The notes under the pieces were generated by a model. That model had not been told where the DNA came from. It saw only the letters and a list, made by a program, of their open reading frames with translations, and did not search any database. The position numbers and the translations under genes were made by a program. DNA of 64,000 nucleotides from Candidatus Omnitrophota bacterium (GTDB taxonomy: Bacteria > Omnitrophota > Gorgyraeia > Gygaellales > Profunditerraquicolaceae), in assembly GCA_030650425.1 (NCBI GenBank), contig JAUSED010000005.1:78932-142931 (forward strand), read 5' to 3'. Below, in pieces: positions 3 to 64,000 of this stretch. Position 1 is the first letter of the stretch, and every line of letters begins with the position of its first letter.

Positions 3-290
3 GTAAAGGATGATGGCAAAGGGATTAACAAGGAGAAGATTATTAAGCGCGCGGAAGAGTTGGGATTCATCAAAAAAGGCCAAAGGCTTAGCGAGCAGCA
101 AATCCTTAACTTAATATTTCTGCCTGAGGTAAGCGAAGCAAAAGACAGCCGGGAAGGAACGGGAATAGGCTTGGCTACTATTAAGAAGAGCATTGAGGCT
201 GTATGCGGCCAGATAAACGTAAAGAGTAAGACAGGGCAAGGAACCCAATTTAGCTTTAGCCTGCCTTGCGGAGTAGAGCCAGATAAGCTG
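3..290 (+). other. C-terminal part of a histidine-kinase-type ATPase (HATPase_c/GHKL) domain
   Basis: The translation ...DDGKGI...EGTGIGLATIKKSIEAVCGQINVKSKTGQGTQFSFSLP matches the G1/G2 boxes and the C-terminal sheet of sensor kinase ATPase domains. Confidence 0.55.
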
Positions 291-51200: not shown

Positions 51201-54200
51201 AGATTTAGACTGGAATTTGATTGGCAGCATCCTTCTGAGAAGATAGCCAAAACAAGGATTATTGACTATATAACTCCGGGCTGCGACTTTTATACTCCGG
51301 AAAACAAGGCAGATATCATAATTATCAAGGCGTTAGATCAATTTCACATTAACCCGCAGGACATGCTTTCTTTCTTAAATCAAAATGGATTTATAGTTAG
51401 CGATATTTATCTGGAGATCCTAGGAATCAGGCCCGTTGCCTTGAAGCTCAGCCATAAATTTGGATACGCCCATAACTTGCCATTCGGAGAATTAGTTGGA
51501 TTAACTACGGGTACGGATGTATTTTTATACAGGAAAATTTCCGCAGCCACTATTTTTAATGGCCCCTCGCGGATAAGTTCACCTATTAATCGCCAAGGGC
51601 AGGCCCCTCAAGATGAAGGCCTTAATAAACAGATTGAGGCGTTAATCAAGATAGTAGGGACAGGGGACGTCAGGGCATCTATTAAGTTATTCGAGATAGC
51701 AGAAGCAGGAAATTTAGGCCGTGGCTTTGTTACTGAGATTTTTGCCCTTCTGAAAGACGAACGTAGGTCTGCGCGAACCGATGCCGCGGTAGTGCTGCAG
51801 GTTGCAGCCTGCAAAGACATTGAAACAATGCTTGAACTTATTGAGCGGACAATAAATGACGAATCGTTAGCGGATGAACGCTACGATACGCATGGCCGTA
51901 TGACTTGGCCTCAGCGCCTTACCGTAAACATCATTAATGAAAGAAAAGGCCAATACATTTTGGAATCTTTAGAATCATTAAGAGGTAATTCTTTACAAAA
52001 GGATATGGTTATAGATTTTATCTTGGATTATGGCAAGTATATAAACGGCTTCTTTAACTTTGCGATCTTGCTCCTCGATAATAAATTATTAAATGATAAA
52101 CAAATCAACAAGATTATCTATGATGTATTTGGCGCGCCTGTTTCACTAAGTAGAATTCGTAAGGCAGCCATTTTTAGTCAACCTCAAGAAATTCTTCCGA
52201 AAGAATTAGGCCTAAAGATACAGACAGATTCTAAAGTAATTATCCTGTCCGGATGCAATTATCCGTTACTAAGGACAGAGGCTCTGATAGAGGATTTAAG
52301 ACACACATACCACTTCGACAGCCGGGTTTCATTTACGGAATGGCCCGTAGAGGAAACGCCCTTTGGCTACGCATTGGATGCCTATAACTTTTTGAAAGAG
52401 CGCTCTCAAGAAATACCTTCGCTTGGAAAGATGCTGAGAGCGATGGAAAGTCGCTCAGGAGAGATTATCGAGGCTTATAAAGAGGAGCTTTATAAGCCAT
52501 ATCCGAATTGGTATTATCTATTAAAAGAGCTCAATGAGATTATGCATCAGGTCCCTTATGACGCAAAATTACTTTTAGGCATCCTTGATTCTTATGCGAG
52601 AGAGATTTTCCATGAAGCTAATTGGATTAAAACATCGCAAGAGAGCATTCCCGGCACCTATATTATATCTTTATATGGAGGGTTATCTGCGCATGACACA
52701 CCTTGGATTTGCGCGGGAGAGGATTTATCAAGCCTTTTAGGCCGGATATTAAAGGAAAATCAGATTGATTGGCGCGCGGAAGAAGACAAGAGCTTAGCAG
52801 GCCTTAGAAACTATGCATACATTGTATTGCCGCTTTCATTAGTAGGCAGCGGTAACGAGGATTTACTGAAGGCCATAATCGGCATATACTTTTTACCAGA
52901 GATCGGTTCTCTTCGCAAGCCAATGCATTCGCTAAACTTAGAGTATGTGATTTCCCACACTGATTCCTCCAGAAGATTTAGCATCGATTTAAAGAAAATC
53001 ATAGATTCTTTACTAAGTACCTTTCCCAAGAACCTTTCTTCGCCGATTACTCTTGCCTGCGGTAAACCGTTGCAGCTAAATCCCGCCGCCTCGCCGCTGG
53101 CTGATAAAAAAAATCAAGATGAATTCAGGATGTTTGAATTTATGGATTTGTTAAGCCAGGATTTAAATCAACATTCCGCTGAGTTAGAGAAAAATAGCCC
53201 TAAGGTTGCGGTGTTTTGTTCTGCCAGGATTAATTCCGGAAAATATTGGGAACTGGCAAAGGCCTTAGGGGCTTCGCTAGAATCTTCCGGTTATACTATA
53301 ATTACCGGAGCTGGCCCGGGTTTGATGGAGGCGGTTGGCGAGGGCGCAGGCCAAACTATTGGGCTGAATATTAATATGCCGAATAAACAAATTCCTAATT
53401 TTTACGTAAAGGAGTGTTTAGAATTTCACAATTTCTCAATAAGAAAGGCTATATTTATCAAATACGCTGATGCCTTTGTAATCATTCCCGGAGGATTAGG
53501 AACTTTAGATGAGCTTCTTGAGGCCTTAACCTTAAAAGACAGGGGATATATCGATGCCCCAATCATTTTATTAGATAAAGGATTTTATTCAGGTTTATTT
53601 GAATTTCTAGAGGGAGTCGAACAGGCTGGTTTTTTGAGAAAGCCCCTTAAAGAATTATGCGTCCTTGTTGATTCTGTAGATGAAGTTTTGCGATATCTTA
53701 AACTAAATAAGGCGCCTCTCAAGCAGGGGAAAAATAATATAGATATTAAACAGGTTTTGGATAATCTCAAGGAGTCATTGGCCGAACTGCAAGGCATAGA
53801 ATCAGCGGTTGGTATTCTGGGCTCGCATTCGTTTGGGAAAGACTCTTCCTCTTATAGGCAGGCATATAATTTAGCCAGGGGTTTTTCCAGAGGTGGCAGA
53901 AAAATACTTTATAGGGGCTGTCAGGGGATTACCGAAGCAGTTGACAAGGCCATTGAAGCAGAAAAAGGCGTGGGTATATCTTTTTGGGTCCCGGATTATG
54001 AAAAAATTCAGCCGGTTATAGGTAAACGATTGGTTTCTCTGCACAGGTTCGCGCAGAAGATTCTTTTGATAACGCATAGCAGGCTTGGGCTTATTTTCTT
54101 TGCCGGAGGAATTGGCACGCTCGATATATTATCCGATGCTTTATGTTTGATTCAAAATAAAAAGATACAGGCAATGCCTATTGTATTAGTGAATAGAGAG

Positions 54201-57200
54201 TTTTGGCAGCCTTTGGTTAGCTGGCTGGAAACTATTTTGAAATCAGGGGCAATATCCAAGGAGGATATTGAATTAGTTAATCTTGTTAGTACAAATGAAG
54301 AGATAATGAAGATTATCGCCGCATCTTCGGTTTTAGGCGAGCAAGCGCGGGATTCGAGCGAATATCGTTTAAGTTCGCCTGTGAACGAATCCTGCGTAGG
54401 CCAACCCTTAGACAGACCCTCTCAAATTAGTAATGTAGACACTTTACACAACTCATCGCCTGTCAAGCAATTAGGAAAGAAAATGCTTCTGCGGTTAGAT
54501 ACCGATAAAAAGTATTCGAGCTCTCCGGCAATAATAGAAGAGATAGCCGCGGCAATTACAGATTCGCTCAAGCTGACTGATTACTCTGGTTCGCCGTTGT
54601 TCTCCTATACTTTCTGTTTCCCTGCCACAATACGTGGCGGAAGCTCGTCTATGTCCGTTTCACCTGTAACTTATGTAGCCTTGGTGGTTTTATATTCATC
54701 TACCTCGTTTTTGATAACAGAAGGAGCAGGATTATTAGTAAACCAGCTTTTTCTAATTCCGCAAATTATTTGCGCTCCGCCAATAGTAAAATATGCAACT
54801 AAGCCCGTTTCCTCGCCGGTAGGGGCTGTTGGCTTCAGCTCGCCGGTGGAAAAAACAGTTGGAGCGACGGTGGTGACGCGAGGCGCCGCCTCGCCGCTTG
54901 GTGAATGGTCAAGTGATAATCTTAGGCAGCAACTTAAGCAGATTGAAGGGAATGTTTTGAATTTGCTGAAGAAATATTCTTTGCCAGAGTTTACGGATAT
55001 TGTTTTACATCCTGTCGCGTATCGTTCTTTAATCACGTGGTTAAACGCAGTCATCAAAAGCCGTGAAGATATACAAGATTTCAAAAAAATGCTGCAGAGA
55101 ATGGAAAAAGACTTTCTGGGGAGTATTTCCGGATTTGTTGCTATAATTTCTCCTGAAGAAAGAAAATCTTTAGTAGAATCTTTAGAATCCTTTAAGCGGA
55201 AGGCAAACGATAAGTTAAATGGTTTTATTACTGAAGCAAGAGAGCTGTATGGAAGGTTTTTGAAGTTGACGCAGCGGGATTTAGAAAATCGTTTTCCGGG
55301 AGAAACTACTCTTATTCTCTTACGGATAATGAGGACAGAGCCTATTAACCGTGAGTGGAATAGGGTTAGGGAAAATGAACATTTCACTTTAGATCCGTAT
55401 CATGGCTATACAAAATTAGACTGGAGAGTGATTATTGTTGCGCAAGTGCCTTTCGGGAGAATCAAAACAACCCCATGGGTATTGGAATCAAGTAAGACTG
55501 AAGAAGAATTTATTGTTTCCGGAGGCCTTCTAAACGTTGTCCAAACCTTTGATAAAAAAGATAAATGGATTAAGTGGAGAGAAGCAAACAAGGATTATTT
55601 TTATGCCAAGCTAAACTCGGCTTCTTCGCCAATCCTAGAAAATAATCAAAGTCTTCTCGTAGCTGGACGAAGTCCTATCAAATTTATTGGCTTAAGCTTG
55701 CCTGTGGAGGGAAAGCTTAAAGAGGTTTTCCTCTATGATAAGCTAGAAGAGAAACTGGTGCCGGTAGAGGCCAAAATCCTTGATACTCAGGACCCTGAAT
55801 TCAACGGTTTTCAGGATGCTGTAAGGGAGTGGTTAGCCTATTCTAGGGATGGTTATGCTATTGATAAAGCTAAAGACCCTCTAACCGGAGAAATTATTAC
55901 TATTCCTCATATCCGTCCTCTTGCCAGCCAAATTATCCAGAATGGAATCACTACTAAAGAGCACTTTATCGTTTTTAAGACAGCCGAGCAGGGAATTATT
56001 GCCTTTGTTCGCCTAAAGTTAAGGCCGCGCAGTATCCTTGGTGCCGGGTTTATTGTTTCTCCGGTTATCCGGCAAGTTAAACGTTACGATACGGAAACTC
56101 TCTTAATGGCCGTGATTCAGTCAATCATCGAATTTAGCCTTCAACAATTGGGCAGGGTAAGGGTGTGGGCGGATCCAGCTAACCGAAAGATGCTGGATTA
56201 TATTTTGCTATTTGGGCCGATAAGAAGACAAGGAAAATTCCTGGTAACGGACGAGGCCGCGCGAAGAATTCTGTGGTACATCCGTAAAAAGATGGCAGAT
56301 TATACCGCAACTTTAGCTGAGCCGGAAGAGAAAAAGTTGGATGGTTCTATTTCCGGCGCCTCCTCGCCGCTGGATTTAACGGTTGGCTTAAGTATTATCA
56401 TCTCCTATGCCTTATTAGTTCCGGTATTTGATTTATACCTGCGTAGGACTATTCAGCGTAAGACCATAGAAGAATTTAAGAAATTCCCATATCCTGTTTG
56501 GATTATGACATTCGCTTTTCTATTATTAGCATGGAAATTCCCGCCGTTGCACAATATTATTTTTTACCTCACCGCATTTTGTCCCGGCATTTTCCTTTCT
56601 TTGATAACGACACTTTCTTTGGCGACTATTTTTAGCCACCGAAAGACCAAGAAAATCATTATACCTTATTATTTATTGCGGGAAGAAGTGAATTATATGT
56701 GGAGACTATATGTCGTTAATATGAAGATTATTGAAGCCGTTGATATCTTTTTCTCAGCTGTGGCAGTCGCCTTCTTTAGTTATTATACCCATGCAACAGC
56801 TTATTTCATACTAGTAATGCTTCTAAAAAGAGCCGGAGTTCTATATCTAGCCCGAGGGCTCACTAAGGAATTTTCTTTAGAGCTTGAAGAGAGATACGAT
56901 GGGGGCAGGGACTTTATAAAAAAGTTTATCACAACAGAGCAGTTATTAGGAACAGATATTGCGCTTAGAGCAAAGGGGGAGCATAAGATAAGCTATAATT
57001 GCCCGCGGCCAATAGCTTTTGCGTTTAGTTATAAAGGATTAGTTCTGTATTTAGAGGAACCGTATCTTGCTTATTATTTATACCCTTGGTTTATGCCTGT
57101 AGTCAGAGTGATTCAAGAGATCTCCGGCTGGAGAAAGGCAAGAGACCGCGCGAAAGATTCTCTTCCGCAAAGCGAAGCAGCTTGCGGCGGATTAATTCCG

Positions 57201-60200
57201 CAGCGTATTGAGTATAGAGATGGGGCCGCCTTGCCGCCGGGATCGCATATCGTCGTCTACGAGGAGAATGGGAATGTAGACGTTGTATATAGCCCATTGT
57301 TTAACAAAGGGTTACAAAACAAATCTTTAGGATATCAAGATGGCCCCGCCGCCGGCACTGAGCCTAATCGAAGCGCCTCGCCGGTTTCAGGAGAGACAGA
57401 ATTATCTTCGGCTTCCGCATGCCTTAGCCCCGCTAAATCCCGCGATAGCCCTAAGGGGAATAAATTCTTAACCTTAACTTCTGCTTTTCTTATTTTTCTT
57501 ACCTCCTTCCATCTTTACCTTAGTCCTTTGCGGGCCTATGCTAACCTTAAGGTTAATCTAAGCGTAATCACGCCCCAAGCGTCACAAGAGCGCCAAGAAA
57601 CCGAAGAGCTTTATAATCAGGCAAGCAGGCATCTAAAGAATCAAAAATACCAAGAAGCGCTGGATCTGTATATAAAGTTAATTAAGCTAGCGCCCAATTA
57701 TATAGATGCCTACATTGACAGGGCCTATCTTTATATCCACCTTGCTCAAGAAGCAAAACAAACAGGTAAAGATACAAAAGGCCTTAGGAAGAACAGAGAC
57801 AATGCAATGTTGGATTTAAAGAAGGCTGAGGCGCTTACTTTAAAGGCCATAAAAGAGAAATACTTTACTAAAGAAGAAGGCAATTTGGTATTTGCCTCAA
57901 TCTATAATCACTACGGATTATTTTATTATCACCTTGAAGGTGATTACAAGAAAGCAGTTAGTTATTTTGAGCAGGCCATAGGCTTAGAGCCGGATAACCC
58001 GATAAATCATAATGATTTAGGGGGAGCCTATTTTAAGTTAGGTAAATACGGCCTTGCCGAAGAGGCATATACTAAGGCAATTGATAAAGCAAAAGCCGCC
58101 AAAGACAATTACGCGGGTTCCCGCATTTACGCAAACCGCGCATTCTTAAGGTTTAAACTCGATAGATATAAGGCGGCAAAGCAAGACATACAGGAAGCCA
58201 CTAGTTTAAATCCCAATTTAAAGAATGATAATAATATCCAAAATTTATTAAAGGAGATTGAATTGAAACTTCAAGAGCGAGAAGGGGTTATTGATTTGTC
58301 TTATCTAAAACTCAATAACTCCAATATCCTTCAGCAGGCTTCCTCGCCGGTTTCGGAGAATAGAAGGGGACAGTTCTATCGTAACTGTTCATCGGCTATG
58401 GAGATAGACAGAGACGGTCTGGAGGATTCTAAGGAAGCGCTTATCGCGCCTTTGCAACATCCCTTAGGCAGGCATTTATATATAGGTACTGATGAGGAGC
58501 GAGACTTATCTAAATGCAGGCAATTGTTATTTGCAGCTTGTCTTGAACTTAGGATATGGAAGAAGCGATATTATTTTGAGCAAGTTGAAAACAGGATATG
58601 CAAGGATCCTTCGTTTCGGACAAAAATAGGCCTTATTGTCTTATTGCGCGATATCCTGCTTAATTATGACGCTTCTAACGTAACGGTTGCTTTTGTAGAC
58701 AGGCTTGAGGGTATTCCGGAAGAACTGATATCGTTCCTTTTAGATGACGAGATCTTATCAGCTTATTTGAATTATCAAGATGAACTTCGAAAATATAAAT
58801 ACATGGATGATAGGGCTATCGAAACTGGCTTTTTCCCATTTTATTATCTATGGTCAGCGTATAAACGCGGGGAAATGCGTGATGCCAAAGAACTCAAAGA
58901 GAGAGTTGTTAGCATCCTTAAGGGTTTTGGCTATGATAAAGCATTCTTCAAGCTCCTAAATGACTTAGCGCATAAGAAAAAGGCGGATTTTAGCCTTGAT
59001 AGCGGCGCAGACGAATTGCGGGTTTTCTTTAGGGCCTTATCCCGTAAAGATATCGTTGAGATTTTTAGACAGACCTTATCAACTCAGATTCTGCCTTCTG
59101 TTAAAAGGCATAGAGCTTCATCTGTAATACAAGGTACCGCCTCGCCGCTGAAGGAAATTGGATCAGAAACCCAAAGAGAAGCAGCCAGGGGAATGATGGT
59201 CATTGAATTGCCCGTGGATGCCGACTTGGGCGAGATCATAAATCACAAAATTGTATATGTTAAGAATGACGGGAATATTAGCACGATTAATGAAGGAAAT
59301 ACAATTAAACTACTACATCCTGATGGGCTAGAATGGAATCTTAGCTGCAAGGTAAGGGATTATCTAAGAGCTACATTTAGCTTAGATTACTCTCTCCTAG
59401 GATTAAAACCTCATCCCTCAACACTTGGAGCGATATGGGCAATGGAAAGGTATCCTACCAATAATCAGCAAGTCCTTGACGCGGGTTGCGGTGAAGGGGT
59501 TTTCACGATTTTGGCGGCTAATTTAGGAGCGAGTAAGGTTATAGGCGTTGATTTAAAAGATTTCATTATTGGACTCGCAAGAAGAAATGCTGAATTAAAT
59601 CGCTTAACTCATATTATTGAATATCACAAACAGGATTTCACAAAACCGTTACAACTATCTGTAAATAACATCAAGTTTGACAAGATCATAACTAATATAC
59701 CCTGTGGTTATACTTATATGGTTCCATCTTTATTGAGGCTTTATCCGGAAGTCAAAACCTTTATTTGGGCAGGTGATTACGTTCATCAAGAAGGCCGCGA
59801 GTATATCGTGGAGGGATCAGAAGAATATATTAGGGAGATTCAGGCATTAGGATTTCGATTCGTAGAAAAATTGATTATTCCTCAAAGAGGTTTGTTTTAT
59901 CCAGAAATTATTATTTGGAAGTGGGTGACATATATCTTAAAGCGGGAAATTAACGAAGCAGGCGCCGCCTCGCCGCTGGGGAAAAATGATCAAAATATCC
60001 TTATCCCTGAAATTATTTCTGAAGCTATTGCAGAAGAAGTTCAAAGAATGCCGGCTTGGGAACTTTTATCTGTTTTAGATCTCAAAAAGGCCAAGCTACT
60101 TTTTACTAAAAGCGGTCCTAGAGAGCTTACTGTCCACAAGATTAAAGTGCCAAAGCTTGTAAATAAGTATAAAGCGCCAGAGGGTTTAAGTATTCTGCCG

Positions 60201-63200
60201 TATGAACTTTTTGATACGACAGAATTTGAACTTTTATACAATAAAAAAGGATACCTTATCGCGATTTATCCGGTTCTCCCAAACGGATTCCTGATTAAAT
60301 CTGGCGAACGACTCCCTCACTATTTTGATTTTAGTGAATATTATTTTAAAATTCCGGAATTCGGTGATCCGAAAATGATTGAAAAATGGGATGCCTTCGT
60401 AAAGGATGTCGGCAGAGATCGGGAAGCAATACAGGCTTATGAGGATTTAATCGGGATAAAGGGTAAGCTTGAAAGGCGCCCGCGTTGGGTACCTTACATC
60501 TACGCAAATCTTGATTATCGGGATAATTTTCCATTTGCTCGGGCTTTTTACATTGAGATGTTTAGCCGTTTGATTAAAAAAGATGAAATCTCGAATAAAA
60601 TCTCTAGAGACATAATCCGGTCTATTCTTCCTGTTTTTCCGACTGTTTACCATCCGGGATCCCATTTATTGGATGATTGGAAATACATTTTAGCTGTTAC
60701 CAGGCGTCTTGATATCCAAAAAGACCATGATATTTTGGTTGTTGGCCCGGGGAATGGCCTTGACACTTGGTTTGTTTCTCGGCAAACAAGGCGGAAAATT
60801 TATGTTGCGGGAATTAATCCTTTGGAAGTTGCCAATACCAGGGCTGTCGCAAAAATTGCCGGGTTTAAGATAGAAGCCAGGATTTACGACAACATTATTT
60901 CTAAAGACGGCGTGACTGTCTTTAATAAGAGATTTGATCGGATTATCTGGAATATGCCCACATATTATCCGGTTGCCCCTAGAATCCGGGAAAGCCTTGA
61001 AGAATGGGAAGATAATGATTACGACGGTATGATCTTAAGGCGTTTTGCCGGAGGCCTTCCATTACTTCTTAAACCAAATGGAATTGCTTTGGTTTGGAAT
61101 TCCGCTGCCGGAAAACTTTTAGATGAGGTTGAAGAAATCTTAAAAGCAAGAGGAGCGCTAGATGTGGCAGTCGAAAAATACCCGGGTATGACGTATTTAG
61201 CCAATATCGAAATGGGCACGGAAACCATTCCTACCGCGCTTTACTTTATCCGCAAGGGAAAAAATCCGGATGCAGCAAGCGCCTATTGTGTCAGTTCGCC
61301 GCTGAAAGAAATAGTTGGAGCGACGGTGGTGACGCGAGGCGCCGCCTCGCCGGTTTCGGGGGGAATATTCCTAACTATATTATGGCCTAAAGACGGTAAT
61401 ATCTTTAATGCGCTCAAAATCTCTGTCATTAGTAGCGATATTCCTAATCTTGCGGATTCTCATAAGAGCAAGATTGAGGGCATCGTTTGTCAACAAGCCG
61501 GATTGCTTAATGATCAATTGGGCAGTATCAAAGACACTTTCATTCAGCGGCCATATCTTGATGTTCAGTTTAGGGATACTATTTATGGCTATATGACACT
61601 TACTGAGTTCTTTGGTTATTTGCGGATGGGATTTAAGGTAGGAGACAGCTTTATGGGAGGATATATTGTAGATTTCTATGGTTTCGGCAATCATAAGACG
61701 ATGCAGAAGCTCAGCGACTACAATAACAGAAGTATAAGCAATTATTTCTTTTTGCTCGCAGCGCTGAAGAAAATTGGTGGCGTTATCATTGATGCCCAGA
61801 AAGTGGTATATAAATATATTGGAGTCAACGAAGATTTTTTTACCGGATTTGACTTTGGCGAGCATCTAATTATTCAAAGGGCTAAAGTTAGGGGATTCAG
61901 CAAGTATCTTAGCAATGCCGCGTTTAATATGTATGATAGCGCGAGTAACTTCAGTGGTGGTTTTAGGCAACTCAAACCTTATTTCTATCCTCTGATGTTC
62001 GGCAAGGGGAACCTTGGAGAGCGGGCGAATGACCCCTCGTTCATAAATTCCCAGTATAGTCTTAGTCATATTTTTTCTCCTTCTAAAAAAGTATACCACG
62101 CTCTTAACGGGGTTGTCAAGAATATTAGTCTTGCCGCCTCGCCGATAAGGATCTCTCCATTTCTCAGTGACATATTTAGAATGTTTCATATGTTTGAGGT
62201 AAATGAATCTATTTTAAGCGAAGACGGGAAAGAGGCGCAGCAGTGGGTTAAGAAAATCATTGGCACAATGCAGAGGCCCCCTGTCGGCCTTATTACAAAT
62301 AATAATGCAGAAAAGCTCATAGCGCTTATGCCTAATCCACGGAAAATATCTCTCGGTGGTTGGTTTGATCTTAGCAGCCTCAATTTTGGAAGCGATGATG
62401 AATTTGGCTTTGGTTGTTTAAGGCCTTGCCCGCATTGTTCAGAAGGGAATACAAGAGCGCGGGTAACAAATCGCACGCTGCCGCCTGCAATAAAGCTTAT
62501 TGAAGAGATGCGCAAGGAAGGCCAGCAAGATACGTTAAGAGGCCTGAAAACTTATCCCGGAAGGTTTCTGATCCAAGGGTGGAATAACACCGACCTTTTC
62601 TATTGGTGTGATCCTTTCTTTAGAGTCTATTTAGACGGCCTTATTGAATTTATCGCGCGTCATTACAAAGATAGAAAATTCCGCCTGCGGATAGCCACAA
62701 TCGGCCCAAACATAGATGACTGGCGCGCATTTATCGTAGCAAAGAGTATTGACAATCTGGTGCTTCAATATCCTGAGTTAAGAAATAATATATTTAGTCT
62801 ATCCTTGCATTTGGCCTTATTTAGCACCAGAGGGTTTGATTATAATACTATCTCTGCTTTGTATGAGCGCAAGATAAATCCACAGCGGCTGGCTAAGGTT
62901 ATAGATAACTATGTGGCCCGCTACGCAGCTATTATTGGCGTTCTCAAGAATACGCTAAGAACGGTCAAAGTATTTCTGTCAAATGAAAGCAGTGAATTTG
63001 ACTCTCTTACGCTTACTGTATTAGATAGGGTCTTAGAGAGGGTCAATATCAGTGGTGGCTTAAAACAGAAGATTATTGATGGAGTAGCTGCAAGAGAACT
63101 AAACAGTGATGTAATGACCCCGTACGGCTTTACTGTAAAAAGCGCTAACATTACGCCATCCGGCCACCGGGGGTTTGATTTTGTAATTGGGTTATTCAAG

Positions 63201-63998
63201 CTTGCAGGCAGATGGAAAGAAGCTGAACGTTACAAGAGGGCTCAAGCAGTAATGAACTTCGCTCCATACCGCAGTAATTATGTCCCAGAAGATGGGTACC
63301 CTCAAACCATAATTTTACCGGGAGAAAGAATTATTGTTCAAAACGAGAAAAGAGAAATGTTTAAATTACCTCTGCAACAACTCGATCCTGATGCTGAATT
63401 TCTTGCCCGCTACGGACTACCTGACAAAAAATCTATAACTAAATATTTATCTTCAAGCCCATTGGCCGAAGTCGCCGCCTCGCCGGTGATAAACAGGCAA
63501 TCCATAACTTATGAAGAATTTGCCGATGATAAACTAGTCAGATTATTACAAAGCGCATCAGAAGAAGAAGTATGGGAGGGCATAATTCAATCCTTAGAAA
63601 AGCCAAGTCTCACTAAGAAAGAGGTGTCGGTAATTTTTGAGAATATTGTAAAGATATGTTATATGGAATATGGATATTACAGGTTCTCCGGTTTTTACTC
63701 TAAGGAGAAATTCCGCGAATTTTTTAAGAGGCTATTAGCATTTAAAGAGGAAATAACCGAAAGGATATTTGTAAATGAAGAAATTAAAATTCTATTCAGG
63801 AAAAGAATTGAAATTCTGAACAAAGTTTTAGATCTATCTGCGGCCGTTCCTTATGAGGTAATTCACTACCAAAGAGAGGATAGGATCATTCCTAAAGACA
63901 CCGATGGTTATTCTTTACCTTTAGCATTTTTAAGAATAATAGCTTTGACTATTTACGATACGTTGAAGGTTAATTTGACAAATAAGGTGGTTGCTATG
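3..63998 (+). CDS. Giant uninterrupted ORF, partial at both ends (21,332 codons in window), encoding a multi-module signalling/regulatory mega-protein
   Basis: The frame with codon starts divisible by 3 has no stop codon in the window. The ORF track lists ATG-to-stop ORFs in the other five frames but none in this one, as expected if it is never closed. Recognisable protein motifs occur in this frame from the first to the last kb, and the terminal 2 nt are left over as expected. The true gene is therefore longer than 64 kb. Confidence 0.85.
3030..3500 (+). other. Degenerate HD-like domain (RelA-type, HD dyad replaced by HK)
   Basis: ETYFHHALAAAKTL...AAFLHKL aligns to EPYIxHPLxVA...ALLHDV of RSH hydrolase domains but lacks the Asp of the HD dyad. 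It lies immediately upstream of the synthetase domain. Confidence 0.3.
3675..4060 (+). other. RelA/SpoT-type (p)ppGpp synthetase (nucleotidyltransferase) domain
   Basis: SRVKSAYGMFEKI...FEALKDILGTHIIS...KGYEAIHIDVEI...PYEIVIFS matches RPKHIYSIYRKM...FDVRAVRIV...GYQSIHTVV...VEVQIRT of RelA/SpoT synthetase domains. Confidence 0.55.
5607..6030 (+). other. HD domain of the SpoT/Mesh1 (p)ppGpp-hydrolase type with an intact HD dyad
   Basis: YELARQIHRGKKRDNGEPYLMHPIAVV...ALIDHDVFEE...LMKMADKLHSLKT matches AHxGQxRxSGEPYIxHPLxVA...LLHDVVED...KLADRLHNMRT. Confidence 0.65.
7311..7410 (+). mobile_element. MITE/REP-like nested palindromic element inserted in frame (copy 1)
   Basis: A perfect 11-bp inverted repeat gtcattgcgag (7329-7339) / ctcgcaatgac (7390-7400) encloses a perfect 27-nt palindrome, cgaagcaatctcg a cgagattgcttcg (7352-7378). 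The encoded peptide is R/C-rich (PIVSLRANEVSEAISTRLLRRCAPRND), unlike the flanking protein. A related copy lies 0.8 kb downstream. Confidence 0.55.
8114..8222 (+). mobile_element. MITE/REP-like nested palindromic element inserted in frame (copy 2, about 70% similar to copy 1)
   Basis: Outer perfect 11-bp terminal inverted repeat gttgcgaaatg (8114-8124) / catttcgcaac (8212-8222). Inner repeats cgtcatcctgag (8133-8144) / ctcagaatgacg (8190-8201) and cgaaggatctcg (8150-8161) / cgagattcttcg (8169-8180). Same architecture as copy 1: GTCAT..GAGCGAAGCGAAG.AATCTCG...CGAGATT.TTCG...CTCAGAATGAC. The encoded peptide is FRHPERSEGSRYRRDSSAFGLRMTQ. Confidence 0.55.
10970..11340 (+). other. Domain of unknown function, copy A of an internally duplicated module
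   Basis: PKLSLGLPMVIKSFHNLDEIRYLQEMAGNFELQFCVVSPKRTPYPLLIFSKEL...RFVPFA is clearly homologous to 31540-31870 (LELGLLMATKPFLNLREVRNIQELAGDFELQFTVIFPKGARHPLVVFSREL...RFVPFA). Both copies are followed by HTH domains. Confidence 0.5.
11440..11620 (+). other. LuxR/GerE-type HTH DNA-binding domain
   Basis: TDRELEIWRLWAKGVDREAIGKALNEGERFIKRVISKIITKFNISKRGQIAHF matches the LuxR C-terminal pattern LTxRExEVLxLxAxGxSNKEIAxxL.ISxxTVKxHxxNIxxKLxVxNRxxA. Confidence 0.5.
11925..12060 (+). other. Second LuxR-type HTH
   Basis: LSEREKKILWLFIAGYNPKAIALTLSLPEGILLSDILFAMKQKL. Confidence 0.4.
16560..17440 (+). other. TPR repeat tract followed by a TM helix (17455-17520)
   Basis: Repeated motifs such as W..LG..YY..GD...A...Y..A and A.Y.LG.I.F.QGK.DEA; then LPMLFVGLVLFIIAGISAG. 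Confidence 0.5.
18703..18747 (+). repeat. 17-bp near-perfect inverted repeat (hairpin) within coding sequence
   Basis: ggacacaatccttaatt (18703-18719) is complementary to aattaagtattgtgtcc (18731-18747) with one mismatch. It is followed by the tandem cctggaattc ctggaattc. Confidence 0.5.
18785..19150 (+). other. CheD-like (chemoreceptor glutamine deamidase family) domain
   Basis: GGRFVGCTACLFWDNNAGIHGFLHLFP resembles the CheD signature LGSCVAVCLYD...GGMNHFMLP. Confidence 0.3.
20100..20400 (+). other. Possible GNAT acetyltransferase fold
   Basis: IQEESLYGKGYVNEILFWI resembles the acetyl-CoA-binding motif A (Q/RxxGxG/A). Similar weak GNAT-like segments occur at 18200-18500 and 38390-38770 (RHNGYGIKIFRTAIKAL). 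Confidence 0.25.
20545..21040 (+). other. GGDEF diguanylate cyclase domain (GGEEF active-site motif)
   Basis: DLLTGAYNRRYLDE...[26 protein letters not shown]...FRYGGEEFCVI...VTVSIGV...ADQALYKAKENGRNRV contains all the GGDEF hallmarks. Confidence 0.8.
22290..22830 (+). other. Protein-kinase-like fold (atypical)
   Basis: FADSKPENVIIHH resembles the catalytic loop HRDLKPENILL, and the downstream IDMDN sits in the DFG position as in atypical or aminoglycoside-type kinases. Confidence 0.3.
24780..25240 (+). other. TPR repeat tract
   Basis: LNDFGAICLDQGRYSLARILFEVGL...HFQLGYVSYLLGEFNLAFAYFQTAKRLG...LGDFDNALKEFQEMMQAG. Confidence 0.5.
27500..27620 (+). other. HExxH zinc-metallopeptidase-like motif (HEYVH at 27526-27540)
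   Basis: VVRIIIHEYVHYYSFYSP...AEVFAETIVEMIY. This is a minimal gluzincin/ImmA-like signature, weak on its own. Confidence 0.25.
29220..29960 (+). other. Sigma-70 family module (region 2 and region 4-like)
   Basis: GLIKKIIASYKVT...LEDAAIFGAKIAALKYHPERGVKFMTFAWNVIKHEI matches region 2 (LVxSIAKRY...[37 protein letters not shown]). The C-terminal segment ...DQFGFSIVAKQRGIKRQTVTKAYYLVLATLR resembles region 4. Confidence 0.55.
30229..30480 (+). other. Low-molecular-weight phosphotyrosine phosphatase/ArsC-like domain (CxGNxxRS P-loop)
   Basis: GGIKVVFLCNGNRWRSAAMYLW matches the LMW-PTP P-loop V(L/C)FVCxGNxCRS. Confidence 0.4.
31540..31870 (+). other. Domain of unknown function, copy B of the duplicated module (see 10970-11340)
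   Basis: See copy A. It is followed immediately by the XRE HTH array. Confidence 0.5.
31995..33105 (+). repeat. Tandem array of about seven XRE/Cro-C1-type HTH units (about 160 nt each), two of them near-duplicate
   Basis: Units such as LRQIREKMGLSQKELVNRLGFLNLSAITFYEIGTVKMPLDFLNRI. LLQELRESLGYTPAKLAKVIGYTEVDILHWENAEAWIPSGVLRDIRKRVMPERLRQIREKM (32150-32340) is paralogous to LLKALREFLGYRAEKLARELGKGYTEEGILRWEEGKEWIPRGVLKEIRERLIPLRLRQIRKEV (32640-32810). Confidence 0.6.
33645..34200 (+). repeat. Three tandem repeats (about 60 aa / 185 nt each) of an uncharacterised W...GFL.W..AVKA.G..P motif
   Basis: WPLELFLSQLKTASKILGTNSSTAFLRKYRKIRRAFLFLREKGFLSDWNSAVKATGGQPAFR / WTKEIFLKQLKNAIKESGTSASWVIKDKYRKIYRAYLLYGIEWGFLNWASAVKACGAKPHLR / IIKTRKIFLYRLRQVFADLGTTSSREIKKRYPQLFISFIFCQEEWGYLDWSSAVRKTGNQPIS. 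Confidence 0.6.
35330..35900 (+). other. TPR repeat tract
   Basis: AEQLLNDGQYAEAIKLFKQVV...AKAYFISGKEHYLRGNYRRAINYFRKVLDV. Confidence 0.45.
36040..36700 (+). other. Second sigma-70-like module (region 2-like plus region 4-like HTH) ending at a junction motif
   Basis: HLWLVKLAAIRYL resembles LRLVVSIAKRYL, and FQGLSMEFITRRTELNEKEINQYLKQGGQEIQSL is an r4-like HTH. It is paralogous to 33370-33560 (LALNHEDMDNIIRLTGLTQEEIDRHLIEGGEKIQKISGL). Both end in xSSPV / SASPV. Confidence 0.35.
38865..38876 (+). repeat. Junction motif GCCGCCTCGCCG, exact copy, in phase (AASP)
   Basis: Exact 12-mer. Context PAASPVLGK. Confidence 0.9.
40960..41530 (+). other. Cluster of about 5-6 predicted transmembrane helices
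   Basis: Long hydrophobic runs such as WLSIFPAALFWAGYYLF, VIILASIALIGLTTIVF, IVGTTAVMRAIMVGSRTFLFSGIYFFSMIIFSALCSVFIL and FLVFMGAFFISDIVAMF. Further TM clusters lie at about 15440-15540, 19350-19500, 19770-19850, 38960-39070, 49020-49130, 49490-49620, 54640-54790, 56370-56860 and 57460-57540. Confidence 0.5.
41823..41834 (+). repeat. Junction motif GCCGCCTCGCCG, exact copy, in phase
   Basis: Context PAASPLAEE. Confidence 0.9.
43565..44400 (+). other. Radical SAM core domain (CX3CX2C plus GGEP)
   Basis: IITSKCNLQCAPCIAQ gives CNLQCAPC = CX3CX2C, and FVGGEPSLYG is the SAM-binding GGE motif downstream. Confidence 0.5.
46283..46980 (+). other. Calcineurin-like (PPP-family) metallophosphoesterase fold, partly degenerate metal ligands
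   Basis: VLVIPDIHCQY...IQIGDVISRGPE...RLLGSHELL...VVHAGV follows the DxH(x)nGDxxDRG(x)nGNHE pattern, with D to S in GDxxD and N to S in GNHE. Confidence 0.45.
48150..48440 (+). other. Two helix-turn-helix motifs
   Basis: WESQRRLAEEIGISEMTISNYLRRI and LKEWGIKELAALFGKTPHSIRQALPAINKRL. Confidence 0.4.
49310..49660 (+). other. M48/HtpX-like membrane zinc metallopeptidase module (HEITH at 49444-49458) with flanking TM helices
   Basis: GNYITINPNQLGNPDFELAKLMGHEITHITLGH resembles the M48 core (...ITvttGLL..L..dELegVlaHElgHi). Hydrophobic helices lie both upstream (49020-49130) and downstream (49490-49620). Confidence 0.45.
49990..50300 (+). other. Class I SAM-dependent methyltransferase fold
   Basis: GKTVIDAGTGDGVLAIMMAK (motif I, VLDxGxGxG), ...VDILVTNIG. 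Confidence 0.45.
50484..50495 (+). repeat. Junction motif GCCGCCTCGCCG, exact copy, in phase
   Basis: Context AAASPVSQ. Confidence 0.9.
53085..53096 (+). repeat. Junction motif GCCGCCTCGCCG, exact copy, in phase
   Basis: Context PAASPLAD. Confidence 0.9.
53205..53650 (+). other. LOG-family (lysine-decarboxylase-like / nucleotide phosphoribohydrolase) domain
   Basis: VAVFCSAR...YTIITGAGPGLMEAVGEGA...KADAFVIIPGGLGTLDELLEALTL...PIILLD matches the LOG signatures GGGxGLMGA and PGGxGTxEEL. Confidence 0.65.
53800..54290 (+). other. Second LOG/DprA-like Rossmann domain, more diverged
   Basis: AVGILGSHSF...ILYRGCQGITEAVDKA...LIFFAGGIGTLDILSDALCL...PIVLVN. Confidence 0.35.
54857..54896 (+). repeat. 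40-nt perfect direct repeat, copy 1 (contains a junction motif; encodes VGATVVTRGAASP)
   Basis: agttggagcgacggtggtgacgcgaggcgccgcctcgccg is identical to 61313-61352 and in the same codon phase. The flanks match for about 8 more nt with 2 mismatches. Confidence 0.9.
56370..56860 (+). other. Cluster of about 6 predicted transmembrane helices
   Basis: LSIIISYALLVPVF, VWIMTFAFLLLAW, IIFYLTAFCPGIFLSLITTLSLATIF, VDIFFSAVAVAFFSYY and AYFILVMLL. Confidence 0.45.
57580..58240 (+). other. TPR repeat tract (about 6 repeats)
   Basis: ELYNQASRHLKNQKYQEALDLYIKLIKLAPNYIDAYIDRAYLY...GLFYYHLEGDYKKAVSYFEQAIGLEPDNPINHNDLGGAYFKLGKYGLAEEAYTKAI...ANRAFLRFKLDRYKAAKQDIQEATSLNPN. Confidence 0.6.
59440..59730 (+). 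other. Class I SAM-dependent methyltransferase fold
   Basis: QVLDAGCGEGVFTILAANLGASKVIGVD (motif I) ...FDKIITNIP (motif IV-like). Confidence 0.45.
59963..59974 (+). repeat. Junction motif GCCGCCTCGCCG, exact copy but out of phase with the ORF (read as APPRR)
   Basis: 59963 is not divisible by 3. The ORF frame reads ...KQAPPRRWGKMIKISF..., whereas the +1 frame would read EAGAASPLGKNDQNIL before hitting TGA at 60008. Confidence 0.8.
60700..61130 (+). other. Class I SAM-dependent methyltransferase fold
   Basis: HDILVVGPGNGLDTWFVSRQTRRKIYVAGINP...FDRIIWNMPTYYP...LKPNGIALVW. Confidence 0.45.
61313..61352 (+). repeat. 40-nt perfect direct repeat, copy 2 (immediately upstream of the antisense toxin cassette)
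   Basis: Identical to 54857-54896. Confidence 0.9.
61380..61865 (-). CDS. vapC: PIN-domain ribonuclease toxin (VapC-like), encoded antisense within the giant ORF and in codon registry with it
   Basis: The 161-aa translation has the PIN hallmarks IFVDSNIFIYHF (N-terminal Asp), TSVIVVAELLHRL (Glu), LLTNDALNLALM (Asp) and C-terminal IATNDRDFERI (Asp). Its start ATG (61863-61865) abuts the TAG stop of the upstream small ORF. It ends at the TAA complementary to the plus-strand TTA at 61380-61382. Confidence 0.75.
   Translation of the reverse strand: MLAKVKSGKKIFVDSNIFIYHFLGINDNATNFLQRCEQKEIIAYTSVIVVAELLHRLMIAETIEIYNISSHKAVSYLKSHPQITKELSKCHIAINSIPKLNIKIWPLNESVFDTAQLIIKQSGLLTNDALNLALMRIRKIRNIATNDRDFERIKDITVFRP
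61866..62069 (-). CDS. vapB: Antitoxin of the DUF104 type that commonly pairs with PIN toxins; start taken at the internal Met preceded by a Shine-Dalgarno
   Basis: MTKTILGIYERGVIRPLSKVPLAEHQRIEIRFELP... matches the MxxxIxAIYENGVLKPLEPLDLPEGTEVRV antitoxin signature. AAGGAG lies 7 nt upstream of this ATG on the minus strand. The track ORF (61866-62189) extends further 5' but without an SD. Confidence 0.7.
   Translation of the reverse strand: MTKTILGIYERGVIRPLSKVPLAEHQRIEIRFELPKTTTEVTRAIIHIKRGIAKILAESPNFSPLNN
62077..62119 (-). promoter_or_regulatory. Sigma-70-type promoter plus Shine-Dalgarno for the antisense TA operon
   Basis: The minus strand reads TTGACA (62119-62114) - 18 nt - TATACT (62095-62090) - tttttag - AAGGAG (62082-62077) - aaaaaat - ATG (62069-62067). 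Confidence 0.6.
62133..62144 (+). repeat. Junction motif GCCGCCTCGCCG, exact copy, in phase (immediately beyond the antisense cassette promoter)
   Basis: Context LAASPIRI. Confidence 0.9.
62400..63200 (+). other. Second CX3CX2C motif (possible radical-SAM-like module)
   Basis: GFGCLRPCPHCSEG gives CLRPCPHC = CX3CX2C at 62415-62438. The domain extent is uncertain. Confidence 0.3.
63474..63485 (+). repeat. Junction motif GCCGCCTCGCCG, exact copy, in phase
   Basis: Context VAASPVIN. Confidence 0.9.
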
Positions 63999-64000
63999 CA

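Follow-up and report, generated by a model that had tools for sequence, protein, structure and literature searches.

A toxin-antitoxin operon nested antisense within a giant bacterial gene of more than 64 kb

Introduction

Type II VapBC-like toxin-antitoxin (TA) operons, in which a PIN-domain toxin is paired with an AF2212-like (PF01954) antitoxin, are common in archaea and many bacteria. Genes embedded antisense within other genes have been catalogued as candidates in E. coli (10.1101/2020.11.18.388249), and in-register antisense frames often form long "shadow ORFs". Small TA cassettes occur in sedentary chromosomal integrons, such as the Vibrio superintegrons, where they play a stabilising role; promoter-bearing integron cassettes are discussed in 10.1101/2023.11.21.568050. 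In turn, giant genes have been described in Omnitrophota (West-Roberts et al., 2023, 10.1101/2023.11.21.568195), including a "multi-enzyme metabolic cluster" class (10.64898/2026.06.07.730766). The latter study comprises 5,761 Omnitrophota ORFs of at least 10,000 codons.

Here we analyzed a 64-kb stretch of DNA (the window), in which a TA operon lies backwards inside such a giant ORF. In at least ten related cases the codons of this cassette avoid creating stop codons in the giant frame, so that both strands stay readable. Our literature searches retrieved no description of TA cassettes nested in giant genes.

Results

Anatomy of the locus

We found that the plus frame, whose codons start at position 3, has no stop over all 21,332 codons of the window. 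On the minus strand, in exact codon register with it, lie two abutting ORFs of 161 aa (61380-61865) and 107 aa (61866-62189). The features of the locus are listed in Table 1.

Table 1. Features of the nested TA operon and of the surrounding giant ORF (positions within the window).
Position	Strand	Feature	Observations
3..64000	+	Giant ORF of the multi-enzyme type, running off both ends of the window (at least 21,332 codons)	Radical SAM, TPR, two LOG/Lysine_decarbox-like domains and PrmA-like methyltransferases; nearest homologues are named Omnitrophota/Omnitrophica
61380..61865	-	PIN-domain (VapC-like) toxin gene, 161 aa plus TAA stop at 61380-61382	In exact register with the giant frame; Pfam PF01850, E=3.2e-15, 57.2 bits (cut-off 23.6); full-length homologues at 49-75% identity; all invariant family residues kept (D14, E52, T126-N127-D128, D149); no TTA/CTA/TCA codons
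61866..62069	-	AF2212-like antitoxin gene, 67 aa from the ATG at 62069-62067	TAG stop at 61866-61868 directly abuts the toxin ATG; Pfam PF01954, E=4.4e-8, 33.9 bits (cut-off 21.6), model positions 1-46 of 59, residues 41-86 of the 107-aa ORF; the same 66-67-aa gene lies upstream of the toxin in L001, L003-L006, L166 and L167
62077..62082	-	Ribosome-binding site AAGGAG, 7 nt upstream of the antitoxin ATG	Read from the sequence; part of Phe-Ser-Pro in the giant frame; GGAG-type sites at the same place in L001 and L003-L006
62090..62119	-	Sigma-70-type promoter of the TA operon: TTGACA (62119-62114), 18-nt spacer with TG, TATACT (62095-62090)	Best promoter-like site in 60800-62800, 11 of 12 positions matched; TTGAC[AT]-N17/18-TAnAnT conserved upstream of the antitoxin in L001 and L003-L006
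61341..61352	+	Left copy of the 12-nt direct repeat GCCGCCTCGCCG (Ala-Ala-Ser-Pro)	A copy of the punctuation motif of the giant ORF, just beyond the toxin stop
62133..62144	+	Right copy of the 12-nt direct repeat GCCGCCTCGCCG	792 nt (264 codons) from the left copy, just beyond the TA promoter
61353..62132	+	Passenger segment of the giant ORF: 260 codons, the in-register antisense reading of the TA cassette	No Pfam match; the only part of the giant ORF shared with the giant ORFs of L001 and L003-L006 (27-35% identity)
L001 to L006 and L163 to L167 denote loci carrying homologous cassettes.

D14, E52, D128 and D149, together with T126-N127, are invariant columns in a 24-sequence family alignment; a catalytic role of the acidic residues is inferred from PIN domains in general. 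The toxin falls well below the NCBIfam VapC equivalog cut-off (NF047959, 20.4 bits against 80), a profile of the family matches solved VapC structures (9z7o, 7by2) only weakly, and a PADLOC search gave no match. It is a divergent PIN toxin, for which "VapC-like" is the safer label. An exact-sequence look-up of the toxin found no called gene, which is consistent with gene callers keeping only the giant ORF. No intrinsic terminator was detected after the toxin; the palindrome CGAGGCG-C-CGCCTCG at 61335-61349 has a loop too small to count. No Rfam family is present in the window. Ten other long minus-strand open stretches of the window (up to 242 codons) have no Pfam match, so the TA cassette is the only recognizable antisense gene here.

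As for the giant ORF, its best protein hit (70% identity) and several others are named Omnitrophica/Omnitrophota, while the closest cassette loci come from Omnitrophota or "Planctomycetales"-labelled MAGs; no marker gene lies in the window. The domains listed in Table 1 were found in the last 30 kb, where no integrase domain was detected. A homologue search with the giant-frame protein spanning the cassette returned only matches to the upstream methyltransferase module. The 618 codons downstream of the cassette have no detectable homologue or Pfam domain, and their coding status rests on openness and codon usage. A full HMMER scan of 1.8 billion representative proteins with the passenger peptide gave only four short fragments, too few to estimate prevalence.

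Codon usage of the two strands

The earlier note had claimed that, within 61383-62066, the plus frame avoids TTA, CTA and TCA, and this observation is confirmed. In the plus frame these codons make up 1194 of 21,332 (0.056 per codon), and TTA is the commonest Leu codon (812 of 2375). The interval contains only one of them, the CTA at 61866. In contrast, all 228-codon windows have a mean of 12.8 (sd 4.1), and the minimum among 20,219 windows that do not touch the cassette is 3, a comparison the note had set as a possible refutation. The 161-codon free run is the longest in the window (the next is 127) and adjoins a 115-codon run. In a codon-shuffle permutation, a run of at least 161 occurs with P=0.10, and such a run next to one of at least 66 with P=0.005. 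As the note stated, TTA at 61380 and CTA at 61866 are the complements of the toxin and antitoxin stops. It had restricted Leu to CTT/CTC/TTG/CTG and Ser to TCT/AGT/AGC; yet, we found that one TCC and one TCG are also used for Ser.

However, plus-frame avoidance of TTA/CTA/TCA is the same statement as the openness of the minus-strand ORFs and, taken alone, is explained by the TA genes being real and under protein-level selection. The independent evidence is the converse: in their own frame, the TA genes (40% GC) have no TTA/CTA/TCA among 22 Leu and 14 Ser codons (P about 8e-7 under the codon usage of the giant gene), and the giant frame therefore has no stop.

Conservation in the toxin clade

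In a neighbour-joining tree of 154 homologues, the embedded toxins plus L002 form one exclusive clade of 11 cassettes. Ten of these, from independent assemblies that include a single-cell genome (L005) and contigs of 189-268 kb, are stop-free in the antisense in-register frame over every base fetched (0.6-20.5 kb). In L001, L003-L006, L163/164 and L165-L167 the other antisense frames carry 10-32 stops. In the other loci openness extends 13-20 kb around the cassette, although five of the ten cassettes sit on contigs of 0.6-1.1 kb, where embedding in a giant ORF means only that the whole contig is open. The exception, L002, has three antisense stops 177 nt beyond the toxin, on a contig with 1.3x coverage.

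None of 97 more distant, non-embedded homologues with toxin GC below 0.52 is stop-free, and their mean is 4-8 such codons (Fisher p=3e-14 against 10 of 10). Among free-standing homologues of higher GC, 4 of 42 (GC 0.52-0.60) and 5 of 9 (GC 0.60-0.75) are stop-free. The ten cassettes share ancestry, and the tests are not fully independent, although synonymous sites are nearly saturated. In six cassettes, 131 Leu and 100 Ser codons include no TTA/CTA/TCA; the per-locus P under host codon usage is 1e-4.5 to 1e-6.3 for five of them and 1e-2.6 for L001, whose host usage rests on its own 1.1-kb contig. Codons one step from an antisense stop are depleted as well: GTA, ACA, GCA and CCA make up 6% of their codon boxes, against 22% in GC-matched free-standing homologues (p=2e-14) and 18-28% in the host. 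Only the in-register phase can always be cleared of stops synonymously.

Substitutions follow the TA frame, with divergence of 0.33/0.23/0.59 at TA codon positions 1/2/3. Amino acid identity for the same DNA is 58% in the TA frame and 33% in the giant frame, the ranges being 51-66% and 27-39%, respectively. Synonymous divergence is close to that of free-standing homologues (0.59 vs 0.64). The toxin and antitoxin are full length in every clade member for which the respective gene lies on the fetched DNA, and the arrangement of antitoxin stop and toxin ATG recurs in at least seven relatives.

The giant-ORF flanks are unrelated between loci. Direct repeats flank the cassette in the window (12 nt), L001 (16 nt), L005 (117 nt) and L006 (42 nt). 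We also observed that the giant ORF of L004 carries a second, unrelated antisense TA pair (DUF433/DUF5615) without a stop.

Discussion

Interpretation and alternative explanations

We interpret the interval, with good confidence, as a complete type II TA operon with its own promoter that is fully nested, in codon register, inside a giant ORF of the Omnitrophota multi-enzyme type. The TA frame is under ordinary protein-level purifying selection, while the giant frame through the cassette is under selection only to contain no stop. In this view, ribosomes would translate about 260 codons of passenger peptide and go on to the downstream modules. As giant-frame stops correspond exactly to the TA codons TTA, CTA and TCA, openness is bought entirely by synonymous choice in the TA genes, and, in this view, long-term evolution under that filter has also removed most x[T/C]A codons, which a single common amino acid replacement would turn into a giant-frame stop. 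The cassette behaves as a movable module of about 0.8 kb, in several cases bounded by direct repeats. The note's conclusion that both strands are kept open by selection, and that translation of the giant ORF across the cassette matters, is supported and much strengthened by the comparative data, although the plus-frame codon choice on which it rested is only the trivial half of the evidence and the two strands are constrained differently.

Our analysis demonstrates the anatomy, the dual openness and its conservation, the frame that carries amino acid constraint, and the codon signatures. It is inferred, on the other hand, that the openness reflects a need for uninterrupted ribosome transit, translation through the cassette being deduced from the absence of stops only. 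Expression of both strands and a growth-arresting RNase activity neutralized by the antitoxin are likewise inferred from sequence. The founder cassette is inferred to have been already stop-free on its antisense strand, for example by coming from a high-GC donor, which the free-standing homologues with GC 0.60-0.75 make plausible. By analogy only, the cassette may persist as a selfish or addictive module that may also stabilize the giant gene against deletion.

A by-product of composition or chance can be regarded as refuted. High-GC homologues are indeed often stop-free, and a single 161-codon run is not exceptional in the permutation, but the low GC of this TA, its codon usage, the contrast with the 97 homologues and the extended openness in the other loci exclude it. 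It is very unlikely that the cassette is a decaying relic persisting by inertia: no expression data exist and the toxin scores poorly against the VapC equivalog, yet the full-length genes, the invariant PIN residues, the substitution pattern, and the conserved promoter, ribosome-binding site and stop-ATG junction all speak against it.

True dual coding, with the passenger peptide as a functional domain under amino acid selection, also seems unlikely. The plus-frame codon-usage score in the cassette (0.16-0.19 bits per codon) is within the normal range of the gene (0.26, sd 0.07), synonymous sites of the TA frame are slightly more conserved than in free-standing homologues (identical codons 0.34 vs 0.29), and Tyr, Cys and Trp are depleted in the peptide. 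However, there is no Pfam match, giant-frame identity is low, the most variable nucleotide position is giant-frame position 1, and the Tyr and Trp depletion goes below host composition, which fits stop-neighbour purging better than a domain constraint. Finally, the giant ORF might not be translated as one unit across the cassette, its stop-free state being maintained for another reason, or might be an assembly or annotation artefact, since end-to-end translation of such ORFs has not been shown and the literature leaves open whether their products are cleaved (10.1101/2023.11.21.568195). We consider this improbable, as the same architecture appears in independent assemblies, 21,332 codons without a stop cannot be neutral, and the purging of stop-neighbour codons is expected only if stops in this frame are selected against.

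A more speculative and rather doubtful possibility is that multi-enzyme giant ORFs of Omnitrophota are chains of gene-sized cassettes joined at a short punctuation motif, [AS]-S-P-[VLI], mostly encoded as ...CTCGCCG, which would serve as the recombination junction for module shuffling, as a processing site separating the products, or both. TA operons would then be mobile modules that enter these chains in reverse orientation, are tolerated because they are stop-free on the antisense strand, and act as addiction modules protecting the very costly giant gene from deletion. The antisense TA transcript might also feed back on giant-gene expression.

The locus may be among the clearest natural cases of a long antisense gene overlap maintained over evolutionary time in bacteria, with an obvious selective reason and a measurable codon-level footprint. 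It also bears on whether giant genes are really read end to end: the frame is kept stop-free, and codons one mutation away from a stop are purged, even across a segment whose amino acid sequence is not conserved. Both argue that uninterrupted ribosome passage through the whole ORF is itself under selection. In practical terms, gene callers that keep the giant ORF discard the nested genes, so such cassettes are invisible in current annotations. The recurring boundary motif, in turn, offers a concrete way to cut giant proteins into modules for structure prediction and to test for processing sites.

Comparison with known systems

Like the described Omnitrophota giant genes, the ORF exceeds 21,000 codons, is tiled with unrelated enzyme domains and has a mosaic architecture that is unique at the sequence level. 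It fits the multi-enzyme class, defined by an ORF of at least 10,000 codons tiled by many different enzyme domains, none dominant. Neither of the two studies (10.1101/2023.11.21.568195; 10.64898/2026.06.07.730766) mentions antisense or embedded genes, TA cassettes inside giant ORFs, or a recurrent boundary motif.

The locus resembles the TA cassettes of sedentary integrons in that a small, promoter-bearing and plausibly addictive or stabilizing cassette, found in varying contexts, sits within a long array of gene-sized units separated by a short recurring sequence. An integron-like interpretation was nevertheless dropped, as no attC-like structured site and, in the 30 kb scanned, no integrase domain was seen; only the 12-nt direct repeat flanks the cassette, and the inverted repeats found are 13-14 nt with arms 226-421 nt apart. 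Moreover, the array is one continuous reading frame, so the cassette must be stop-free on its antisense strand.

With VapBC-like operons the locus shares the domain pair, the order of antitoxin then toxin, the abutting stop and start, a sigma-70-type promoter of its own and the conserved acidic PIN residues. It differs in being fully nested antisense, in codon register, inside another ORF, in a codon usage that lacks TTA/CTA/TCA and is depleted in x[T/C]A, and in its score below the VapC equivalog cut-off and lack of a PADLOC match.

Compared with embedded antisense genes and shadow ORFs, two ORFs likewise occupy opposite strands of the same DNA in the phase where stops map to TTA/CTA/TCA. Here, however, the embedded genes are the old, domain-bearing and conserved ones while the host frame is the passenger, and the overlap covers a whole two-gene operon plus its promoter (about 780 nt), conserved across a clade at 50-66% protein identity, with an evident selective reason for openness in the continuity of a giant ORF.

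The toxin-antitoxin operon and its host frame

We found that the whole 64,000-base window constitutes one open reading frame on the plus strand, which comprises 21,332 codons without a stop. Its last 30 kb carries Radical SAM, TPR, two LOG/Lysine_decarbox-like and PrmA-like methyltransferase domains, and its nearest protein matches are named Omnitrophica/Omnitrophota. This fits the "multi-enzyme metabolic cluster" class of Omnitrophota giant proteins (bioRxiv 10.64898/2026.06.07.730766), following West-Roberts et al. 2023 (10.1101/2023.11.21.568195). On the minus strand, in exact codon register with this frame, lie a gene for a PIN-domain protein and, immediately upstream, a gene for an AF2212-like antitoxin whose TAG stop abuts the toxin ATG. 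They are preceded by a ribosome-binding site and by the best sigma-70-like promoter of the region. The toxin is full length relative to homologues at 49-75% identity and retains every invariant residue of the family alignment, while a family profile weakly matches solved VapC structures. The locus is therefore, as judged from its sequence, a complete TA operon nested antisense within the giant ORF.

Features of the window and of related loci, with their coordinates (L001, L002 and L004-L006 are loci encoding relatives of the toxin; P0001 is an Omnitrophica partial protein)
Locus	Coordinates	Strand	Feature	Details
Window	from 3	+	Giant ORF	Codons start at position 3
Window	61380-61865	-	PIN-domain toxin gene	161 aa; PF01850, E=3e-15
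Window	ATG at 62069	-	AF2212-like antitoxin gene	Most likely start, which gives 67 aa; PF01954, E=4e-8
Window	62077-62082	-	Ribosome-binding site	AAGGAG
Window	62090-62119	-	Sigma-70-like promoter	TTGACA, 18 nt, TATACT; 11 of 12 positions matched
Window	1053-63477 (for example 38865, 41823, 48006, 50484, 53085, 54885, 59964, 61341, 62133, 63474)	+	Peptide motif [AS]-S-P-[VLI]	62 occurrences, about every 1 kb
Window and P0001	59964-61283; P0001 residues 1054-1493		Shared module	70% identity
Window	54846-54895 and 61302-61351		Repeated stretch before the motif	About 40 nt, gttggagcgacggtggtgacgcgaggcGCCGCCTCGCC, peptide VGATVVTRGAASP; copies 6.5 kb apart
Window	54671-55399, 45410-45940, 25433-25927, 19769-20263, 39053-39541	-	Long stop-free stretches, not in register	162-242 codons
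Window	62145-63998	+	Giant ORF downstream of the cassette	618 codons
L001	1-16 and 904-919		Flanking direct repeats	16 nt, perfect; spacing 903
L005	9611-9727 and 10514-10630		Flanking direct repeats	117 nt, 91% identical; spacing 903
L006	9599-9640 and 10964-11005		Flanking direct repeats	42 nt, perfect; spacing about 1365, plus imperfect 24-36-nt repeats
L004 (contig CAYHTV010000033.1)	11426-12017 (toxin-strand orientation)		Second antisense TA pair	DUF433 antitoxin (80 aa, PF04255, E=4e-20) and DUF5615 PIN-like toxin (115 aa, PF18480, E=2e-13)
L002 (ERZ5996431 contig, 957 nt)	1-843; stops at 844, 916 and 952		Antisense in-register frame	Open through the TA and 177 nt beyond
L002	641-898	toxin strand	PCMT-like methyltransferase fragment

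Codon choice on the two strands

The earlier note observed that the plus frame avoids TTA, CTA and TCA across 228 codons of the cassette, and this observation held. Together these codons make up 5.6% of plus-frame codons in the window, and TTA is the commonest Leu codon, as the note had claimed. The 228 codons contain only one of them, the CTA at 61866, which is the complement of the antitoxin stop, whereas the mean per 228-codon window is 12.8 (sd 4.1) and no window away from the cassette has fewer than 3. The depletion thus falls outside the variation seen in the rest of the gene, and the test that the note had proposed for its own refutation does not refute it. The list of Ser codons in the note needs a small correction, as one TCC and one TCG are also used. 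Yet, in this register plus-frame TTA/CTA/TCA are the complements of minus-frame stops, and their absence merely restates that two minus-strand genes are open, which is already explained by protein-level selection on the TA genes. The non-trivial fact is the mirror image: the TA genes themselves use no TTA, CTA or TCA among 22 Leu and 14 Ser codons, and this is what leaves the giant frame without a stop. Under the codon usage of the giant gene itself (42% of Leu as TTA/CTA, 14% of Ser as TCA) the probability is about 8e-7. The interpretation offered in the note, i.e., selection for openness on both strands, with translation of the giant ORF across the cassette being of importance, is supported, although such translation is inferred from sequence alone.

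Codon-usage scoring showed that both strands look coding-like in the cassette, with 0.16-0.19 bits per codon for the plus frame and 0.18-0.27 for the minus frame, while elsewhere in the gene the values are 0.26 and -0.42. The downstream 1.85 kb again scores as plus-strand coding and is open, but we detected in it neither a Pfam domain nor a homologue among 5.8 billion proteins; it represents dark-matter sequence. In turn, several long stop-free stretches exist in another minus-strand frame of the window; their translations are Ser-rich, of low complexity and without a Pfam match, and they are probably compositional shadow ORFs.

Conservation of dual openness among toxin relatives

We retrieved 160 loci encoding relatives of the toxin from genome and metagenome collections, and several more by exact protein look-up. 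The closest relatives are L001 (66% identity), L003 (Omnitrophica GWA2_41_15), L004 and L006 (MAGs labelled Planctomycetales), L005 (an Omnitrophota single-cell genome), L163/164, L165, L166 and L167. All of them have zero stops in the antisense in-register frame, not only within the toxin but across every base retrieved, which is 13.7-20.5 kb for L003-L006 and the whole contig (0.6-1.1 kb) for the others. Their other antisense frames carry 10-32 stops. Among 149 more distant homologues, none of the 97 with toxin GC below 0.52 is stop-free, their mean being 4-8 such codons; ten of ten against zero of 97 gives p=3e-14. In a neighbour-joining tree of 154 toxins, the embedded ones plus L002 form one exclusive clade. 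L002, known from a contig of 1.3x coverage, is the one member of this clade that is not open throughout, and it could represent the start of the host ORF, a free-standing copy or sequencing error.

Wherever the upstream region lies on the retrieved DNA (the window, L001, L003-L006, L166 and L167), the 66-67-aa antitoxin is present with the stop-ATG junction. A TTGAC[AT]-N17/18-TAnAnT promoter and a GGAG site are seen in the window, L001 and L003-L006. Across six cassettes, 131 Leu and 100 Ser codons include no TTA/CTA/TCA. The per-locus probability under the usage of each host is 1e-4.5 to 1e-6.3 for five loci and 1e-2.6 for L001, whose host usage comes from its own short contig.

Constraint on the two frames

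In codon alignments of the six long loci, differences at TA-frame positions 1/2/3 are 0.33/0.23/0.59 for the toxin and 0.36/0.23/0.59 for the antitoxin. The same DNA gives 58% and 55% amino-acid identity, respectively, in the TA frame but 33% and 31% in the giant frame. The most variable nucleotide is giant-frame position 1, so the giant frame is not conserved as protein and is only kept open. Synonymous divergence is near saturation and close to that of free-standing homologue pairs of the same protein identity (0.59 vs 0.64). The ten cassettes have therefore explored synonymous space extensively without ever fixing one of the three forbidden codons.

We also observed a second-order footprint, as all x[T/C]A codons are depleted in the embedded clade. 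GTA, ACA, GCA and CCA are 21 of 352 codons of their boxes (6%), against 379 of 1718 (22%) in 49 GC-matched free-standing homologues (p=2e-14) and 18-28% in the host ORF; in the window alone the count is 3 of 49. AAA and GAA, in turn, are enriched. In the giant frame the depleted codons are the TAY, TGY and TGG codons, the box-mates of the stops; Tyr, Cys and Trp are correspondingly low in the passenger peptide, and Tyr and Trp fall below host composition. We infer that, since Val/Ile-to-Leu and Ala/Thr/Pro-to-Ser replacements are common in the TA proteins and would create a giant-frame stop at a site carrying A in third position, A3 has been filtered out over time. Either way, this marks a long history under the constraint. 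A simple enumeration showed that the in-register antisense phase is the only one in which every stop can be removed by synonymous changes, while one of the other phases has an unavoidable stop at the invariant Phe-Ile of the NIFIYHF motif.

Genetic context and mobility of the cassette

The giant-frame translations of L001 and L003-L006 share only the roughly 230-250-aa antisense-of-TA block with the window and with each other, and up to 10 kb of flank on each side is otherwise unrelated. The one exception is another module shared by L003 and L004 at different relative positions. In the window the cassette sits exactly between two perfect copies of GCCGCCTCGCCG, 792 nt apart. Direct repeats also flank the cassette in L001, L005 and L006, whereas none was found in L003 or L004. 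In L005 the repeat encodes a transmembrane-like segment of the giant protein. These repeats suggest duplicative insertion or recombination at repeated sequence. The cassette thus behaves as a discrete module of about 0.8 kb that has been placed in different giant ORFs. A plausible, inferred origin is a donor with high GC, where the antisense frame is often open by chance (5 of 9 free-standing homologues at GC 0.60-0.75), followed by amelioration to host GC under the no-stop filter.

The giant ORF is punctuated by the peptide motif [AS]-S-P-[VLI], of which only 2.0 occurrences (sd 1.3) are expected from residue shuffles. Ser-Pro is mostly encoded by TCG-CCG although TCG is the rarest Ser codon, and the 11-mer GCCGCCTCGCC occurs 24 times (up to 1 mismatch) against 0.68 expected, always on the plus strand. 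It looks like a module-boundary signal, a candidate for a recombination junction or a processing site. The only block of homology between the giant protein of the window and its closest relative, P0001, runs exactly from one copy of the SSPV/AASP motif to the next in both proteins. P0001 possesses the motif at residues 22, 412, 668, 901, 1055 and 1494, with unrelated modules on both sides of the block, and continues with a different module instead of the cassette. It seems that modules are exchanged as units between motif copies. In addition, a longer stretch preceding the motif is repeated at two module boundaries of the window. Its second copy contains the palindrome CGAGGCG-C-CGCCTCG just downstream of the toxin stop, but no T-run follows and a terminator scan called none.

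In L004 the same giant ORF also runs without a stop through a second, unrelated antisense TA pair about 1 kb away from the VapBC-like cassette. The DUF433 gene is in register with the giant frame, while the DUF5615 gene lies in a different antisense phase, and a GAGGAGG site is located upstream. The phenomenon is therefore not tied to one TA family or one phase.

Interpretation and relation to known systems

Our analysis demonstrates the anatomy of the locus, the dual openness and its conservation, the asymmetry of constraint and the codon signatures, whereas the mechanism behind them is inferred. In this view, stops in the giant frame are deleterious because ribosomes must pass through the cassette to express the downstream modules, or to protect the long transcript. 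The roughly 260-aa passenger peptide would be tolerated, possibly because it lies between two copies of the boundary motif. The TA operon would be transcribed from its own promoter against the direction of the giant gene and persist as a selfish or addictive element, which might also penalise deletions in a very costly gene, by analogy with TA cassettes in chromosomal integrons.

Chance or composition is excluded as an explanation by the GC-matched controls, and a decaying relic by conservation in the TA frame. Without expression data it cannot be excluded that translation does not actually cross the cassette, yet an artefact is excluded by recurrence in independent assemblies. True dual protein coding is unlikely given the low giant-frame identity, although a slight excess of synonymous conservation remains unexplained.

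Neither of the two Omnitrophota giant-gene papers (10.64898/2026.06.07.730766; 10.1101/2023.11.21.568195) mentions nested or antisense genes, TA cassettes inside giant ORFs or a boundary motif, and further full-text searches found nothing similar. The conserved combination and its codon footprint appear to be undescribed, while the components, i.e., VapBC-like TA systems, antisense overlapping genes and giant genes, are each known.
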